UHGV virus genome: UHGV-0113369
Length of the DNA: 10,854 bases
Origin: a virus
Reading direction: 5' to 3' (one strand)
Numbering within the stretch: position 1 is the stretch's first letter; each line of letters opens with the position of its first letter. Of this stretch, positions 48-6,558 are shown piece after piece. The translations under genes were made by a program, and so were the position numbers. The notes beneath the pieces were generated by a model. That model was given only the letters and a program-made list of their open reading frames with translations, did not search any database and was not told the origin of the DNA.

Positions 48-1043
48 TTACGCCAATACGCCAATTGCCAGCGCACGATCGATAAAACGAAATATCAGCT
101 CCAGCTGAGAGCCATACTTCTCTTCAAATGCCACGGTATCCGCATGCAGCTCGTCGTGATGCTTTCTGCACAAAGGCAACACAAAGAGGTCATGCGCTTT
201 TGTACCCATTCCACCCTGACCGTGGCCTATCAGGTGGTGGGGATCATCAGCAGGCTTTCCACAACATGCACACGGCTGTGTCTTAACCCAGCGCGTGTAC
301 TTTTCATTAACCCAGCGGCGGCGTTTTGGGCGTAACATAAAAGACTCCGGCGACTCCGGATCCACTTTCAGCGCCAGCACCTTTTTCGCCTTATCCTGGA
401 TGATGCTGGTGGCAGGAACCGAAGGCACAAGGTCACTTTCCCGGGTGACAGACGGCACAACAGGCTTCGGTAATCTCAGTGCCTTACGGGCTGCACTTTC
501 CGGTAAGGCATCCGCCAGGTCATTACGAATCAGCCACCAGCACAGTTCCGGCATTGTCACGGCATGGTTATCATCAAAACCGAGATCCAGACGGACTACA
601 GACAACACCCAGCGGGCACAGTTATCCGTTGCCATTGATTCCAGCCGTTCCGTGAACTGATCGCGCAGCTGGTTATCGCAGTGCCAGCACAGACGGATCG
701 CGCCCGGCGCGTGTCGCATTGTGGTCATGTTCTCGCTGTGCCAGTCGGAATGAGGCCACTGGCAGCCTTTTTCACGAAGTAACCAGCTTTCAAGACATTC
801 CACGCCACCAGCACGACGGATCACTGCCTCATTGCGGAACACGGCCCTAACGGCAGGATCATCCGCCAGCGGTTGTGATGCCGCCGGAACGGCACCACTG
901 GCGAAAGATGAATAACGTTCCGGCTCAGGCTCCAGCAGGACACGCCCCTGCATAAACAGGGGCATCAGCTCTGAACCTGGTCTGAACAATACAATCCCCA
1001 TACGCGGGGCTATTTCAGGGGTCAGTAGTGCTCTCACGGTCAC
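48..1043 (-). CDS. DUF968-family prophage protein (YdfU-like) with C-terminal Cys/His cluster
   Basis: 331-aa ORF. C-terminal CACCGKP...HHLIGHGQGG...CRKHHDELH cluster resembles an HNH-like zinc-binding motif. Start is GTG at 1043, immediately after the upstream gene's TGA (1047-1045). Family assignment is from memory of DUF968 prophage proteins. Confidence 0.55.
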   Translation of the reverse strand: MTVRALLTPEIAPRMGIVLFRPGSELMPLFMQGRVLLEPEPERYSSFASGAVPAASQPLADDPAVRAVFRNEAVIRRAGGVECLESWLLREKGCQWPHSDWHSENMTTMRHAPGAIRLCWHCDNQLRDQFTERLESMATDNCARWVLSVVRLDLGFDDNHAVTMPELCWWLIRNDLADALPESAARKALRLPKPVVPSVTRESDLVPSVPATSIIQDKAKKVLALKVDPESPESFMLRPKRRRWVNEKYTRWVKTQPCACCGKPADDPHHLIGHGQGGMGTKAHDLFVLPLCRKHHDELHADTVAFEEKYGSQLELIFRFIDRALAIGVLA

Positions 1044-1044
1044 C

Positions 1045-1854
1045 TCAATGAACGGTATCGAGCAGCTTTAACAGCTCAGGGAATCGGGATTCGAAGAAAT
1101 GCGGCTGCGTCTCACGCGGATTTGCGGGACTGGTGATGTTCTTGCCGAACATGCAGCCTTTCGCCGTCAGCGACCAGAATTTTTTGATGTTGTTAATCCC
1201 GGTACGGCTGTATCGTTCGCGCTGCTCGACGATCCCCAGCTTCACCATCTGGTGATATGCCTGATTAGCCGTCAGGCGGATACCATACTGCTTCAGCAGT
1301 GCACTCAGCGACAGCGTCGGGCGGCTTGAGCCATCAGGCGCGTCAGCAGGTGCATCAATGGCATAGCGCGGTGCCAGATTCGGTAAGCCAACAGCCTCCT
1401 GGAGTTTCTGACAGGCCCCAAGCACAGATGAGTTAGACAGATTTAACTCCCGGCGCATAAAGTCCAGCAGAATCACGCCAGCCTGCATCTTGTCAGCAGC
1501 CTGTCCGGATAATTTTTCCGGTGCGCTGGTTACCATATCGAAAGTACGGATCACCTTCAGATGGAATGACGGGCTGATCCACATTGCATAGGCATACACC
1601 AGTTCCTTGCAGACATACGTTCCCCGTTCATTTCCCCCATGAATCACACTCACCGGGTCAACACCCAAATTCTGGGTGTTGGTTAATTCATGAACAAGCT
1701 CAACAGTTTGTTGGCTGGAAAGAAACTTTCCTGGCTCCTTGGTTCTGGCATTTGCACCAGATGCTACTGCTGCGCGATGCAGATCGTTCAGGCTGTAACG
1801 CCCATAAGCATCACGACGAACTTCAATACCATCAATGACCATCAGATTATTCAT
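1045..1854 (-). CDS. KilA-N domain protein (antirepressor/Roi-like DNA-binding protein)
   Basis: 269-aa ORF. N-terminus MNNLMVIDGIEVRRDAYGRYSLNDLHRAAVASG is typical of KilA-N domains. Strong RBS AAGAGGAGAAA upstream of ATG at 1854. Confidence 0.6.
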   Translation of the reverse strand: MNNLMVIDGIEVRRDAYGRYSLNDLHRAAVASGANARTKEPGKFLSSQQTVELVHELTNTQNLGVDPVSVIHGGNERGTYVCKELVYAYAMWISPSFHLKVIRTFDMVTSAPEKLSGQAADKMQAGVILLDFMRRELNLSNSSVLGACQKLQEAVGLPNLAPRYAIDAPADAPDGSSRPTLSLSALLKQYGIRLTANQAYHQMVKLGIVEQRERYSRTGINNIKKFWSLTAKGCMFGKNITSPANPRETQPHFFESRFPELLKLLDTVH

Positions 1855-1873
1855 ACTTCGTTTCTCCTCTTAA

Positions 1874-2263
1874 TCAGGCGGCTGCACCCGCCGTTTTCTC
1901 GTACTTACTGATAGTGATTTCGACCTTCCCTTCCGGGATAACCGGCCCCCACTCCACCAGCATTCTTTTCACCTGGCTGTCGTCCACCCACACACCCGCG
2001 TGGGTCAGGGCGTCAAACAGCGCCTTGTTATAGTTGTCCAGATCGCGGATCCGGTTATCCGGAGGAAACAACACGATCTCCACTGAAGCTGGTGCCGACG
2101 TTGGTTTCGGCAGACGACGTAACTGCTCAATGATGGCTGCACACGCTGCGCTCTGGAATTTTCGCCCCGCCGCGCTTATCAGGCTCTTACCTGCAAGCGC
2201 CCCTTTGTTGGGGTGTCGCCAGTACGTGTTCACGCTGGGCGGAAAAGGCAGTATTAGCTTCAT
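1874..2263 (-). CDS. rusA: RusA-family Holliday junction resolvase
   Basis: 129-aa ORF with RusA hallmarks (PPSVNTYW, RDLDNYNKALFDALT, VWVDDSQV), alignable by eye to E. coli RusA (120 aa). ATG at 2263 overlaps the upstream TGA (ATGA). Confidence 0.85.
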   Translation of the reverse strand: MKLILPFPPSVNTYWRHPNKGALAGKSLISAAGRKFQSAACAAIIEQLRRLPKPTSAPASVEIVLFPPDNRIRDLDNYNKALFDALTHAGVWVDDSQVKRMLVEWGPVIPEGKVEITISKYEKTAGAAA

Positions 2264-2586
2264 ACTTTCAGGCCCCTCTCATGTAACCAGTGGGCTGCAC
2301 GCAGCCTGGCGTTTGCCTCACCGGCAAGCAGTGCGCGGATAATCCCGACCGCCTCGCTGTCGTCGTCCTTCACCGCGGTATGAAGCGTGATGCCCCGGGC
2401 CACGCCACGCTTTATCGTGATGACGCCTTTTTTCTCCAGTGCGCGAAGATGCTCCACCGCTGCATTCACTGAACGGTATCCCAGCATGGTTGCCACCTCC
2501 TGATTGGTTGGCGGGAAGCCACGTTCTTTCTGATAAGAAATCAGCATATCCAGCACCTGCTGCTGGCATTGAGTTAACGTCGTCAT
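2260..2586 (-). CDS. LexA N-terminal-like winged-helix DNA-binding protein (no S24 peptidase domain)
   Basis: 108-aa ORF. Residues 1-70 (QQQVLDMLISYQKERGFPPTNQEVATMLGYRSVNAAVEHLRALEKKGVI) closely parallel the LexA DNA-binding domain (RQQEVFDLI...[36 protein letters not shown]). No Ser/Lys peptidase domain. ATGA overlap with the methyltransferase stop. Confidence 0.7.
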   Translation of the reverse strand: MTTLTQCQQQVLDMLISYQKERGFPPTNQEVATMLGYRSVNAAVEHLRALEKKGVITIKRGVARGITLHTAVKDDDSEAVGIIRALLAGEANARLRAAHWLHERGLKV

Positions 2587-3236
2587 GCCGCCATCTCCCT
2601 GACCAGTTTTTCTGCCTGCTGGCGAACCTGCGCCAGAAAGGCCTCACCACATGCCTCAAGTTCATCGCGCCCGATGTAGCTGATTGCCGGTCCCTTCCAG
2701 GTCTTGTCGAAAACAGCAATAGCACCAGCGAAGAAAGCGCCTGTCGGCACCTGCTTCTCATCCTTCGGGATAAACCAGGCAGGCAGTTCAAAACCAATAC
2801 GCCCGCGAATAAAAGCAATATGATCTGCATCTTCCGGCCACCACACTTCGCTGGTGGCAGCTTTGATCAGGAAAACATAGCGCCCGCCTTTATCACGCAT
2901 GGCACTGGCATGCTTCATGATGTAACGCATGCCGGTGATGTATTGCCCCTCATGCTGACTGGCGCGGCTGTATGGGGGATTACCAAAGGCAGCACCTTTA
3001 AGCTCCGCAAGGCGTTCTGACCAGTCATGCGCCAGCGCGTTGTCTTCCGCCGTGTAATACGCAGCACATTTGGCGTTATCACCGTCAGTGAACAGATCCA
3101 GAACAAACGGGCCAAACAGGGTGTTAATTCCCCAGAAAATGTTGTCCGGCGTGCGCCACTGATCGCCCACTTCCTTCAGTTCATGGGCTGGTTTGTTCCG
3201 CAGTTCCGCCAGCGCCTGGCAATATTTATTACTCAT
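2583..3236 (-). CDS. Phage N6-adenine DNA methyltransferase (Dam-like, NPPY motif)
   Basis: GNPPYSR catalytic motif and overall resemblance to phage Dam-type methyltransferases. Start chosen as the ATG at 3236-3234, which overlaps the upstream TAA (TAATG). An in-frame upstream start at 3269 is possible (ORF track 2583..3269). Confidence 0.8.
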   Translation of the reverse strand: MSNKYCQALAELRNKPAHELKEVGDQWRTPDNIFWGINTLFGPFVLDLFTDGDNAKCAAYYTAEDNALAHDWSERLAELKGAAFGNPPYSRASQHEGQYITGMRYIMKHASAMRDKGGRYVFLIKAATSEVWWPEDADHIAFIRGRIGFELPAWFIPKDEKQVPTGAFFAGAIAVFDKTWKGPAISYIGRDELEACGEAFLAQVRQQAEKLVREMAA

Positions 3237-3724
3237 TAAGCCCCCACGTAATTCCCTGAGAGATACCACTCTTCACCTGATGCAGCCCGCTTACTGCTTT
3301 TCCGTAAACACCGTTCACGACGCGCCAGAAAATTGTTTCGTTCTGGCTGGGAGTGGCTTTCACGGAATGCCGCCATCCACACCGTTGCAGCACGACGGTA
3401 TAAGCCCCTCGACTCCAGTTCTTCAGCCTGGCGGGTCAGGCACAAAATCACCCGGGGGTCGTTAGTGCCGACATAGAACTTGCGCACAGGTCTGGTTTCA
3501 CGAACTGGTTGTGGTTCCGGCTCCTGCGCTCTCTCAGTCAGGCGCGAGAAATGTCTGCGTGTATCTCCTTCACAACGGTGAGCCACACGCCCACTCTGAC
3601 GTAACTTGCTTGCTGACTGCAGAACGCGCTGCCGTGAGTAACCTGCAAAAGCATCCGCAATGTCTCCGGAAGTACACCCCGGATGGGCTTCAATGAATTT
3701 CTGAACTTCATTCAAAAGACTCAT
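3236..3724 (-). CDS. Small regulator: N-terminal winged-helix domain fused to ANR/PerC-like C-terminal motif
   Basis: 162 aa from ATG 3724 (SD-like AGGGGG 5-6 nt upstream); a GTG at 3730 overlapping the rep stop is an alternative. C-terminal RRAATVWMAAFRESHSQPERNNFLARRERC fits the W..A...ER...R.ERC pattern I associate with ANR/PerC-family regulators. Assignment is from memory and tentative. Confidence 0.4.
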   Translation of the reverse strand: MSLLNEVQKFIEAHPGCTSGDIADAFAGYSRQRVLQSASKLRQSGRVAHRCEGDTRRHFSRLTERAQEPEPQPVRETRPVRKFYVGTNDPRVILCLTRQAEELESRGLYRRAATVWMAAFRESHSQPERNNFLARRERCLRKSSKRAASGEEWYLSGNYVGA

Positions 3725-3726
3725 GA

Positions 3727-4668
3727 TCACCCCCTGAATCCTGCCGGGATCTGGCTGTAGTCCACGTTGTCGTAACTGGATTTGAAGTACGGATCTTCAC
3801 GTTTTTCTGTGTATGTGCTGACGGACGGCGATAAGCGCAGGGAAAGCTCATCCCATTTTTCCCGCAGCTTCGACGGGCTGAGCACGTTACGGCACCAGAA
3901 CGGATCGCGGCTGACGCGGCTGTACATCTCGCAGATTTGTTTGTGAGTACGACCATCCTGCACACACATCAGGCGAATTTCGTTTGCCCAGGCTGTCCAG
4001 TTCGGTTCTTTGGGACGAACCACCTCGCCGTCACATTCGGCAGCCTGCTCGTACAGGGCGATGATTTTTTTCCAGAGCCACTGTGCGCAGGTCAAATCAT
4101 CCTGCGTTCCCCACTGGCGCTTTTTAGGGCTGAATACAACCGCATCAGGATGGCGAGTTAAAAAATCCTGTTCAGCCGTCTGCGTGTCCGGTTGCGAAGC
4201 GTCCGGACGAGAAGGTTTTTTATCTGACGGTTCATGTTTTGATTTTACTGACGGATCCCCGCCAGATTCTGACGGGTGAAAACCCGCTTTTTTGCCAGAT
4301 TTCGACGCATCAAATTTTGACGGGTCAGATTTTGATGCGTCAGATTTTGACGGGTCAGAATCTGACAGTTGAGAAAATGCCGCTGCCTGAAGCTTCGCAA
4401 CGTTAAGCTGATAAACATTCGACGCATTGCGGTTACCCTGGCGACGCGCCTTACGCGTTAACCAGCCTTCTGCTTCCAGCCGTGCGATAGCCGTTCTGAC
4501 GGTACTCATCCCCGCGCCAATCTGACGGGCAATGGTTTCAATTGATGGCCAGCACACACCTTCGTCATTACTGAAATCAGCCAGGCGGGCCATAATTGCC
4601 ACGCTGGATAATTTCATGCCTGACGCAGCGCAACCATCCCATACATAGCCGGTTAATTTAGTGCTCAT
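3727..4668 (-). CDS. Phage replication initiation protein (N-terminal HTH, lambda O-like role) with internal pentapeptide repeats
   Basis: 313-aa ORF. N-terminal 90 aa look like a winged-helix/HTH replication-initiator domain. Central low-complexity repeat DPSKS/DASKS/DPSKF/DASKS is encoded by a 15-bp tandem DNA repeat. RBS GAGG 6 nt upstream of ATG 4668. Confidence 0.7.
   Translation of the reverse strand: MSTKLTGYVWDGCAASGMKLSSVAIMARLADFSNDEGVCWPSIETIARQIGAGMSTVRTAIARLEAEGWLTRKARRQGNRNASNVYQLNVAKLQAAAFSQLSDSDPSKSDASKSDPSKFDASKSGKKAGFHPSESGGDPSVKSKHEPSDKKPSRPDASQPDTQTAEQDFLTRHPDAVVFSPKKRQWGTQDDLTCAQWLWKKIIALYEQAAECDGEVVRPKEPNWTAWANEIRLMCVQDGRTHKQICEMYSRVSRDPFWCRNVLSPSKLREKWDELSLRLSPSVSTYTEKREDPYFKSSYDNVDYSQIPAGFRG
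4220..4368. repeat. Iteron array (candidate origin of replication) inside the initiator gene
   Basis: Four to five contiguous 15-bp units YCAGATTTTGACGGG at 4295-4368, another copy at 4262-4276, and degenerate copies near 4222-4254 (TATCTGACGG, TTTTACTGACGG). This parallels lambda ori iterons lying within gene O. Confidence 0.6.
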
Positions 4669-4677
4669 GACCGACCT

Positions 4678-5016
4678 CTATTTCCCTGAATTTACGACGA
4701 AACTGTTCGAGCGGGCTGAAGCATTCATGCTCATAGCCTTCGCGGAGGTAGATAACCCGTTGTGTTTCCGGTTCCCAACGAATGACTCTGACGGGCACTC
4801 CGTAGTGATCTTTGAACCAGCGGTTAACTTGTCGCAAAGGACTGTCTCCTTCTGCCGGTTGAAATCACCCACAGCCCACTCTGCAAAGCTGTGGGTTACA
4901 ATTTCCCTGTCACCTGGTACATTTACTGCATAGCAATACTCCACCTTCGCTTTTCCACCCGGTACAGGAAGCGCAATCAGTTGCGAGCGACGGTAGTGTG
5001 TTGTTAAACTGTTCAT
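4678..5016 (-). CDS. Hypothetical protein (uncertain coding status)
   Basis: 112-aa ORF whose ATG (5016-5014) overlaps the CII-like stop (ATGA). No recognisable motif. It contains an 8-bp GC-rich hairpin (4868-4895) and is overlapped by an antisense plus-strand ORF. Confidence 0.3.
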
Positions 5017-5597
5017 GCGTTAGTTTCTCCACAACCAGAAGCAATCGACGCCACGACGCCCGGAGCTGCACACTCGCGGGCGTTACTCTTTTCCGGCGCA
5101 CAAAAAACACGAAATAACAGTGTTAAATGCTCCTGCCACTTCGCCATTACTTGGTAGCTGTTCTCTTCGATTTGCTCACGCTCAGCTTGGTCAATAACTC
5201 CATCAGCAGTTGCCTTGCGTAAGTACTGGGAATGCTTGCCAATCCATTCTATTGACTCCATCAGCCGCTGATTAATGTCACCATTGTCAATGTCATCAAT
5301 GACCACCAGCGGCACAAACACCCCATTACTACGACGGGCTATTGCATCCGTTACATGCCTGGTACCACTGGCATCCTGTAAAACCATGGCCCACTCAAGT
5401 GGAAAAATTTGATCCCCACCGCTACGCAGTCTGTTATGCAATTGATCTTTCGCTGGGGTGATATCATCAGATTTATACAAACCAAGAATTTCCGCTGCTT
5501 CCTCATAGCCATGAGGTAAATCAGCAATCGTTCTTCGTATTGCTGCCACCAGCCATGCTGGTTGCTTATCAACTTTCCATTCAGGTTCTTTACCCAC
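5013..5597 (-). CDS. CII-like lysogeny regulator (CP76/YdaT-type), GTG start
   Basis: 194-aa ORF immediately downstream of the cro-like gene, the position of lambda cII. GTG start at 5597 with GAGG 7 nt upstream. Family assignment is by recollection of Phage_CP76-type proteins and is tentative. Confidence 0.45.
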
Positions 5598-5633: not shown

Positions 5634-5834
5634 TTATCCATTAGATTTTTCATAAAGCTCAGGTTTAAATGGCAACCGTCCGCAAGTTCTATATGCAGCC
5701 TCTGCTGCACGTCCTTTTGGAATTAACTGGCCAGGACGGTTTCGCCACTGATAAACGGCTTCAGTTGTTATGCCGAAAAAAGCAGCAACTTTCTCAATGC
5801 TGCCGAAGTAGCTTTCGATATCGTCAGTCGTCAT
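5634..5834 (-). CDS. cro: Cro-like repressor
   Basis: 66-aa basic protein divergent from the CI gene. Strong RBS GGAGG 4 nt before ATG 5834. Some resemblance to lambda Cro in the central/C-terminal region (AVYQW...GRAAEAAYRTCG). Confidence 0.6.
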   Translation of the reverse strand: MTTDDIESYFGSIEKVAAFFGITTEAVYQWRNRPGQLIPKGRAAEAAYRTCGRLPFKPELYEKSNG

Positions 5835-5931: not shown

Positions 5932-6558
5932 ATGGAAACGGTTGGTCAGCGTATAAAAGCTCTGAGAAGAGTTACCAGAACGTCCCAGAAAGAATTGGGT
6001 AAATTTTGTGGAGTAAGTGACGTTGCTGTGGGGTACTGGGAGAAAGACATCAATGTCCCTGGTGGGGAAGCACTTTCAAAATTAGCGAAGTTCTTCAATA
6101 CGTCAATAGATTACATTCTTTATGGTGCGGAGTTTGAAGGCAAACTCGTCACAAACATGCGCAGAGTTCCTGTAATCTCGTGGGTTCAGGCTGGGCAGTT
6201 TACTGAGTGCAGGACAGCAGAAGTGTTTAGTGAAGTAGACAAGTGGGTAGATACATCATTAAAGATTGGTGATAACTCATTTGCATTGGAGGTTAAAGGC
6301 GACTCCATGACTAACCCTAACGGCCTCCCAACAATACCAGAAGGCGCAACAGTGATTGTAGATCCTGATGCAGAGCCCCGGCATGGAAAAATAGTCATCG
6401 CTAGACTTGATGGAACAAACGAAGCCACAGTAAAAAAATTAGTTATCGATGGCCCTCAAAAGTTTTTAGTGCCATTAAATCCCCGGTACCCCAACATCCC
6501 GATCAATGGTAATTGCCTCATCATTGGTGTAGTCAAAGGAGTTCAATACGAACTCTAG
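5932..6558 (+). CDS. cI: CI-type prophage repressor (HTH_XRE N-terminal domain + S24 LexA-like autopeptidase domain)
   Basis: 208-aa ORF. N-terminal HTH (QKELGKFCGVSDVAVGYWEKD). C-terminal S24 peptidase motifs (EVKGDSMTNP with catalytic Ser; KKL with catalytic Lys). Divergent from the cro-like gene. Weak or absent SD, consistent with a near-leaderless pRM transcript as in lambda. Confidence 0.9.
   Translation: METVGQRIKALRRVTRTSQKELGKFCGVSDVAVGYWEKDINVPGGEALSKLAKFFNTSIDYILYGAEFEGKLVTNMRRVPVISWVQAGQFTECRTAEVFSEVDKWVDTSLKIGDNSFALEVKGDSMTNPNGLPTIPEGATVIVDPDAEPRHGKIVIARLDGTNEATVKKLVIDGPQKFLVPLNPRYPNIPINGNCLIIGVVKGVQYEL

Follow-up and report, generated by a model that had tools for sequence, protein, structure and literature searches.

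Replication origins that lie inside a gene are already known from the phages lambda, P22 and SPP1. We analyzed a 10,854-nucleotide (nt) stretch of the virus genome UHGV-0113369 (the window, with position 1 as its first letter), which covers the early-right region of an SfII/SfIV-like lambdoid prophage. Our results indicate that an array of 15-base-pair (bp) repeats and the DNA next to it, at about 4216-4368, are probably the replication origin of this prophage, located inside the linker-coding part of its own initiator gene (3727-4668, minus strand). Judged from the sequence, the layout is lambda-like and the initiator comes from a different family.

In lambda, ori consists of direct repeats with internal dyad symmetry in the middle of gene O, followed by an AT-rich region, and is translated between the N- and C-terminal regions of the protein; in Shiga toxin (Stx) phages, six iterons instead of the four of lambda add 13 amino acids (aa) to O (PMC7466680). 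In the P22 record, a rep_origin is annotated at codons 118-166 of gene 18; within it we found four dyad repeats of some 20 bp, spaced 20-24 bp apart, and then an A-rich repeat. SPP1 oriL lies in gene 38, which codes for the replisome organizer G38P, and has direct repeats together with an unwinding element rich in AT, which lie within the gene whose product binds them (PMC6316719). A passage in another paper postulates that P1 oriL lies inside repL (PMC9948254). By analogy with SPP1 oriL and the postulated P1 oriL, the in-gene design can be regarded as general.

The first-pass annotation of the window had compared it with lambda, and as a matter of architecture the comparison is valid (PMC7466680; rep_origin in gene 18 of the P22 record). 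In lambda and P22, as in the window, the N-domain comes first, then the repeats, the A-rich tract and the C-domain. In P22 the annotated origin also has the same position relative to the N-terminal domain. The proteins differ, however. The window initiator had no match to Pfam PF04492 (Phage_rep_O, the lambda O/P22 gp18 family) at E <= 0.01, whereas P22 gp18 matched it with E 7e-38, and the similarity between the initiator and gp18 was not significant by BLASTP (E 0.47). On the basis of its family matches and its modelled fold, the initiator is a winged-helix protein of the HTH_36/PHROG 391 type that falls outside the lambda O Pfam family. The window units are 15 bp long and abut, unlike those of lambda (about 19 bp, with spacers) and P22 (spacing of 20-24 bp), and the AT-rich tract seems shorter and weaker than that of lambda. 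No P-type loader gene follows the initiator, while a DnaB-like helicase gene (gene 12) follows gene 18 in P22. SPP1 is likened to the window by architecture and by the replisome organizer and DnaD-like matches described below; it differs in a further origin (oriR), in a phage-encoded loader (gp39) and helicase (gp40), and in its Gram-positive host.

The initiator was 99% identical to SfIV gp41 and to the SfII protein annotated as 'O protein family', and the gene was 98-99.5% identical to its counterparts in the Shigella phages SfII and SfIV and in several E. coli phages. PHROG 391 ('replication initiation O-like') covered the whole protein with E 3e-135, and Pfam HTH_36 matched aa 23-70 (E 4e-11), with weaker matches to related helix-turn-helix (HTH) families, the DnaD N-terminal domain and RepC. 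The N-domain resembles the DnaD N-terminal domain, and the C-terminal half matched PHROG 2357, 2514 (DnaD-like helicase loader) and 4880 (replisome organizer). In an AlphaFold2 model built with 48 homologues, the linker (aa 101-158) had a predicted local distance difference test score (pLDDT) of about 30, all below 50, and no secondary structure. The C-domain (aa 160-280) scored 76-97, with most blocks above 90, and the residues beyond it 44-65. The parts of the gene are as follows.

3727-4668, minus strand: replication initiator gene, O-like, HTH_36 type, 313 aa (open reading frame (ORF) and translation, Pfam, PHROG)
4378-4668, minus strand: N-terminal winged-helix domain, aa 1-97, confident in the AlphaFold2 model
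4192-4377, minus strand: linker, aa 98-159, predicted to be disordered, which holds the whole proposed origin
3730-4191, minus strand: C-terminal part, aa 160-313, predicted to be a helical domain to about aa 280, then a tail of lower confidence

The N-terminal winged-helix domain is presumed to be the iteron-binding module, and the C-terminal part an exchangeable module that recruits the host replication machinery. Over its last 76 nt (3727-3802), the gene matched the ends of 'replication protein O' genes in Stx2 and other phages with 96-97% identity; elsewhere their DNA is unrelated. The terminal peptide, VDYSxxPxGFR(G/S), is also found on the unrelated TIGR02220-type C-domain of the Citrobacter phage phiNP. 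This conserved tail may serve as a short motif for docking or as a signal for translational coupling.

Tandem Repeats Finder located a repeat of period 15 at 4296-4359 (4.3 copies, 81% matches) and scored the array again at period 30 (88% matches). A direct-repeat search returned a six-copy family at 4260-4375 with spacings of 33, 15, 15, 15 and 15 bp; apart from this one, no family of direct repeats reached three copies in the window. The conserved element as a whole extends over about 4216-4368 and has the following parts.

4291-4365, minus strand: five tandem 15-bp iteron-like units, U1-U5, coding-strand form TCARAATCTGAC plus 3 bases
4365-4351, coding (minus) strand: U1, TCAGATTCTGACCCG
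4350-4336, coding (minus) strand: U2, TCAAAATCTGACGCA
4335-4321, coding (minus) strand: U3, TCAAAATCTGACCCG
4320-4306, coding (minus) strand: U4, TCAAAATTTGATGCG
4305-4291, coding (minus) strand: U5, TCGAAATCTGGCAAA
4272-4258, minus strand: degenerate U6, TCAGAATCTGGCGGG, 18 bp past U5, with the motif match at 4262-4272, inside the block conserved as DNA
4257-4241, minus strand: box GATCCGTCAGTAAAATC, with codons near-invariant in the family and a GATC at 4254-4257
4254-4248 and 4230-4224, coding (minus) strand: two further CCGTCAG boxes
4233-4216, minus strand: box GAACCGTCAGATAAAAAA, family consensus GATCCGTCAGATAAAA
4216-4250: AT-rich tract flanking the repeats on their C-terminal side, with A prevailing on the coding strand, candidate DNA-unwinding element

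The units are in frame and encode the peptide S102-DSDPSKSDASKSDPSKFDASKS-G125 (aa 102-124, SDSDPSKSDASKSDPSKFDASKS). Their core is roughly dyad-symmetric, (G)TCAR-N3-YTGA(C), over 12-13 bp. The motif TCARAWTYTGA, with at most one mismatch, had five matches in the window, all of them within 4262-4365, against 0.96 expected; five matches anywhere in the window were obtained in 2 of 200 shuffles, so the array is unlikely to be a product of chance. The span proposed in the first-pass annotation (4220-4368) covers the conserved element, and the tandem 15-bp units that it saw inside the initiator ORF were recovered as five units and a degenerate one at 4258-4365. Its consensus, YCAGATTTTGACGGG, is the plus-strand reading; the gene and the peptide frame are on the minus strand. 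It was right that the gene encodes an initiator and that the repeats encode a linker between the N-terminal HTH and C-terminal domains, here a disordered stretch with a winged helix on one side and a helical domain on the other. Its term 'pentapeptide repeat' is accurate for the literal five-residue period; Pfam gave no match in the protein to the pentapeptide-repeat family PF00805, which has a beta-helix fold, and the repeat region is predicted to be disordered.

The heptamer CCGTCAG occurred 12 times in the window against 0.92 expected, a number reached in none of 200 shuffles. Seven copies lie outside the origin and winged-helix regions (1164, 1269, 3082, 3818, 4788, 8162 and 8527) and have no extended similarity to each other. 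The copies in the winged-helix coding region (4496-4502 and 4522-4528) were considered as extra iterons and rejected: their third positions are not conserved, and both exact copies are absent from phiNP.

To follow the element across its family, 80 loci encoding relatives of the N-domain were collected, with one genome per species. Of these, 67 had an intact gene of the window type; they represent many Enterobacterales genera, Proteus and Providencia among them. Every one encoded some 2 to 9 pentapeptide units that could be recognised, and then a conserved block (FDPSESGGDPSVNSKQDPSDKKPS as consensus; FHPSESGGDPSVKSKHEPSDKKPS in the window). Codon statistics were obtained from 279 cleanly parsed units, with the rest of the same genes as background. 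The family consensus of the units is TCA RAW TYT GAC nCn. The first Ser of the unit was TCA in 270 of the 279 units (97%), a codon that accounts for 16% of Ser elsewhere; Lys was AAA in 182 of 182 (63% elsewhere), and the second Ser was TCT in 189 of 207 (91%, against 9% elsewhere). The third codon positions of the unit carried 1.78, 1.22 and 1.51 bits. Residue exchanges in the unit (K, D, E or N; S, F, P or T) leave the bases RAW and TYT in place. In sub-lineages where the peptide SKSDA has become SESER or SERPE, the core TCAGAATCYGA or CAGAAWCTGA is kept.

The single-copy block that follows the array behaves in the same way. Its mean third-position information was 1.39 bit, versus 0.63 bit in the N-domain. 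Where the residue is the same, 88% of its codons were identical versus 42% in the N-domain, with the higher value in the block in 66 of 66 loci (Wilcoxon p = 1.6e-12), and nucleotide identity was 0.85 versus 0.73. Within the box GATCCGTCAGTAAAATC, the codons GAT, CC(G), TCA and GTA carried 2.0 bits each. Codon-by-codon inspection showed that the four-fold sites of the N-domain are essentially randomised, and we conclude that the lineages are old and that the linker is selected as DNA. Because slippage cannot homogenise a single-copy block, concerted evolution does not account for its conservation. The first-pass annotation had stated that its proposal would fail if homologues kept the protein linker and not the repeats as DNA. 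The reverse was seen: the DNA is more conserved than the protein, and third positions are nearly invariant. Since the repeats are conserved as DNA and not as protein, a replication origin is probable.

The number of units varies among related alleles in 15-bp steps, as the first-pass annotation had expected. Among alleles that are 96-98% identical, strain MS 69-1 has two units fewer (-30 bp) and strain p10B one more (+15 bp). Linkers of 35, 45, 50, 55, 60, 65 and 70 aa were found in 120 protein clusters, which corresponds to about 3 to 10 units. The five-unit allele is dominant, with one cluster of 5414 members versus 87 for the three-unit allele. Four proteins (P0015, P0016, P0018 and P0019) represent E. 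coli alleles of 274-287 aa in which most or all tandem units are deleted, and the deletions apparently run between repeated motifs; these prophages may be origin-defective. The cryptic prophage CPS-53 (KpLE1) of E. coli K-12 has a truncated copy (NC_000913.3, 2473251-2473586) that covers window positions 4100-4435, in which the repeat array is present and most of the winged-helix domain is gone.

The type of repeat follows the N-domain. Citrobacter phage phiNP and most of the other genera combine a window-type N-domain and array with a different C-domain (TIGR02220 type). When the phiNP and window DNA were compared, the array and linker were visibly more similar than the winged-helix part, where synonymous differences are many. 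The reverse combination occurs in mEp460, which has the window-type C-domain (96.6% DNA identity over window 3727-4226) and a different N-domain; in the protein alignment the junction is at SRPDASQPD. The linker of mEp460 contains five to six direct repeats of 23 bp with the core GGTCAyTTTGACC, and then an A-rich 12-bp triple repeat. Initiators of this type (also in Stx2c phages, Lys8385Vzw and others among the matches listed) share with the window the C-domain, the gene position, and linker repeats followed by an A-rich repeat; they differ in the N-domain (about 39% identical) and in 23-bp repeats that are out of frame and give no regular peptide repeat. More generally, distant homologues with N-domains 34-41% identical have repeats of their own in the equivalent place, the periods being 22-23, 22 and 18 bp (five copies of 23 bp in mEp460, three of 22-23 bp in locus L081 and five of 22 bp in locus L083). 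Periods of 22-23 bp are not multiples of three, so these repeats can only be DNA elements and not peptide repeats.

Two subfamilies whose proteins are about 55-57% identical have altered 15-bp units, and the GATCCGTCAGTA box is preserved in each. The units of the P0036 subfamily read GAC CCG TCA AAT ATT, which gives GTCAA-ATA-TTGAC with perfectly complementary 5-nt arms; the unit of the second subfamily is CCA GAA TCT GAA CGT. The longer box GATCCGTCAGTAAAATC is kept in the P0095 subfamily, and the P0036 subfamily keeps its GATCCGTCAGTA part and differs after it. In the loci examined, the array occurs only with the window-type N-domain, while the C-domains are exchanged. Because the repeat type tracks the DNA-binding domain, the pattern fits what is expected of a cognate initiator and iteron pair. 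In lambda O, the N-terminal part sets the specificity for ori and the C-terminal part the specificity for the partner, a division that matches the module swapping in the window family. The mosaic junction is at the C-terminal edge of the element, in codons S153-D161 (about 4186-4210), where at least two types of C-domain join this N-domain and at least two types of N-domain join this C-domain.

In 55 of the 67 loci, the 30-mer with the highest AT content in the whole gene is found directly past the array, on its C-terminal side (sequence TAAAATCAAAACAWGATCCGTCAGATAAAA). It was 73-80% AT among the loci shown, the tract being about 35 bp long, and the mean A content of the coding strand peaks near 49% at this place. 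Within the AT-rich part of the element, two GATC sites are conserved in the family consensus. The window retains one (4254-4257) and has lost the other through the change of GAT to GAA in the E146 codon (4231-4233). The phage encodes its own Dam methylase (2583-3269), and this gene together with the GATC sites hints at methylation-sensitive control of the origin.

The following mechanism can be proposed. Early rightward transcription (cro, the cII-like gene, the DUF4222 gene and the initiator gene) would yield the initiator, whose N-terminal winged-helix domain would bind the (G)TCAR-N3-YTGA(C) cores, arranged head to tail every 15 bp in five good units and degenerate copies. The nucleoprotein complex would destabilise the adjoining A-rich tract with its GATC, and the exchangeable C-terminal helical domain would recruit the helicase machinery of the host. 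The analysis shows the repeats, their constraint as DNA, their linkage to the N-domain, the AT-rich neighbour, the copy-number variation and, by the model, the disorder of the linker; that the N-domain binds the repeats, that the tract unwinds, that a helicase is recruited and that the origin is active are inferred. As a disordered tether, the linker peptide would be free in its sequence to follow the DNA sites, and a period divisible by three lets units come and go with the frame intact.

Other explanations of the array were weighed against an origin. One is that the linker is a slippage-prone, low-complexity protein segment whose repeats arose at the DNA level as a side effect of recent duplication and concerted evolution, the DNA itself having no function. 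A period that is a multiple of three, a peptide predicted to be disordered and copy-number changes by whole units would all be expected of it; nevertheless we consider it very improbable, for codon choice is fixed in 67 loci whose N-domains are synonymously saturated, and residues, even in their charge (K, D, E, N), vary while the bases hold. The equal constraint on the adjacent single-copy block and the 22-23-bp repeats of distant homologues at the equivalent place complete the case, and the codon, single-copy-block and distant-homologue results largely refute it. Just as slight are the chances that the segment is a recombination joint for swaps of N- and C-modules among lambdoid phages, young or homogenised and not functionally constrained. 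It is true that the module boundaries (codons S153-D161, roughly 4186-4210) coincide with the C-terminal edge of the element, that the C-domain of mEp460 is common from there onward while phiNP stays similar until about Q159 and then diverges, and that subfamilies with different tandem units have the GATCCGTCAGTA box in common. A joint, however, does not explain why the element was found only with this N-domain type in the loci examined, with entirely different repeats in the mEp460 type, why its conservation is base-specific, periodic and dyad-symmetric and not that of a uniform block, or why the constraint appears in 66 of 66 loci across many Enterobacterales genera, Proteus and Providencia included.

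In principle, another reading frame or an RNA could impose the constraint, be it through an overlapping gene, an antisense RNA or a structure in the mRNA, which we hold to be extremely unlikely. ORFs are present in other frames at 4245-4427 (minus strand, 60 aa) and 4239-4406 (plus strand, 55 aa), but in every one of the 67 loci stops interrupt four of the five alternative frames, by which an overlapping ORF was rejected, and the fifth is open in only 16. A terminator-like antisense hairpin with a T6 run is seen at 4273-4286; the hairpin and T-run are not conserved, and the candidate part of the element, CGGGTGAAAACCCG followed by CTTTTTT (4273-4295, plus strand, inside the spacer of the proposed origin), was discarded since the family does not conserve it. 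A known RNA family was also rejected: the sole Rfam match was to a microRNA model, at 30.7 bits versus a gathering threshold of 97, and it arises because the repeats are palindromic. The remaining alternative accepts that the array consists of initiator-binding sites and gives them a regulatory role (in autorepression, as a roadblock to transcription of the initiator gene, in copy control or in titration), with replication starting elsewhere in the prophage. The comparative evidence demonstrates a conserved cis element tied to the N-domain and is silent on the start site, the AT-rich tract is modest, and just 10.8 kb of the prophage are in view, all of which this explanation would accommodate. 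We still find it unlikely, given that, wherever relatives of this architecture have been characterised (lambda and Stx phages, PMC7466680; SPP1 oriL, PMC6316719), and also in the P22 annotation, the origin consists of in-gene repeats followed by an AT-rich tract, that the window holds no second repeat array, and that the AT-richest part of the gene consistently adjoins the array.

Several points weigh against the array being the origin. The AT-rich tract (about 70-80% over about 30 bp) is modest beside that of lambda. The abutting 15-bp period is shorter than that of classical iterons (about 19-23 bp, some two helical turns) and leaves little room for a dimer on each unit. When the conservation metric was applied to P22 as a positive control, the annotated origin was 0.72-0.92 identical versus 0.80-0.82 for the N-domain, a weaker and mixed signal; the metric is therefore suggestive and not a calibrated detector of origins. 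The window gene annotation has no helicase or helicase-loader gene downstream of the initiator (compare lambda P and P22 gene 12). The searched literature, with the SfV genome paper outside its scope, contained no binding, footprint or ori-cloning data for this initiator family. In PLSDB there was no small natural replicon with only this gene; the matches were to megaplasmid prophages, phage-sized circles and a 16-kb lambdoid fragment with a different variant and a gene annotated as 'ATP-binding protein'. Finally, the window is about a quarter of a roughly 40-kb prophage, which leaves room for an origin elsewhere.

Direct repeats bound by a winged-helix initiator beside an AT-rich region also characterise theta plasmids (RepA, pi, TrfA). 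Their iterons are about 17-22 bp long with a spacing of roughly two turns, and they are located outside the rep gene, usually together with DnaA boxes. The window departs from a plasmid-type iteron origin in its 15-bp period, its in-gene repeats and the absence of DnaA boxes from the window.

With no helicase or helicase-loader gene after the initiator, the replication module appears to be initiator-only. A bolder version, possible but doubtful, is that one phage protein and the in-frame, abutting 15-bp array suffice as a replicon. The initiator would then recruit host DnaB-DnaC directly, with the conserved tail VDYSxxPxGFR(G/S) as a possible docking peptide, and slippage (about 3-10 units) would tune origin strength and tether length jointly. 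Were this true, such evolution of the origin would be closed to the 22-23-bp iterons of the sister families.

A description of the origin of this initiator type was not found in the searched literature. The SfIV genome paper merely lists a 'replication module orf41-45' and reports that SfV also has this type of initiator, and the papers on yfdO make no mention of an origin. The 'P27' of PMC7466680 was considered as an experimental precedent and set aside, as its O protein is lambda-like, with two substitutions from lambda O; the phiP27 record encodes an N-domain 62% identical to that of the window. Initiators of this type are very common. Of 5426 complete E. coli genomes, 1575 contain the segment for N-domain and linker at >=80% coverage, and further occurrences are in the serotype-converting Shigella phages SfII and SfIV, the CPS-53 remnant of K-12 and many genera of Enterobacterales. 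The proposed origin is narrowed to about 150 bp, a target for ori-cloning, prophage-induction studies and annotation, and genes now called 'helix-turn-helix domain-containing protein' could be annotated as initiators with an internal origin. It would be a clean case of dual coding, in which DNA-binding sites set the sequence of a disordered linker. Synonymous-site conservation beside a winged-helix domain may serve as a simple computational predictor of origins.

In the early-right region, the initiator gene is preceded on the minus strand by the following features, listed here together with the cI repressor gene.

5932-6558, plus strand: cI repressor gene
5889-5861, minus strand: pR-like promoter
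5634-5834, minus strand: cro
5013-5597, minus strand: cII-like gene, ymfL
4658-4837, minus strand: DUF4222 gene, 59 aa (Pfam DUF4222, E 8.6e-19), which overlaps the start of the initiator gene by 11 nt

After the initiator (window 48-3730) come genes for PerC-like, Dam, LexA-like, RusA, KilA-N and DUF968/HNH proteins. The DUF4222 gene was a constant neighbour of the initiator among the E. coli and plasmid matches listed, and its product may be a functional partner of the initiator. In its place the SfIV record has a 339-nt ORF in another frame (window 4678-5016, minus strand), which lacks a Pfam match and is probably a mis-annotation.

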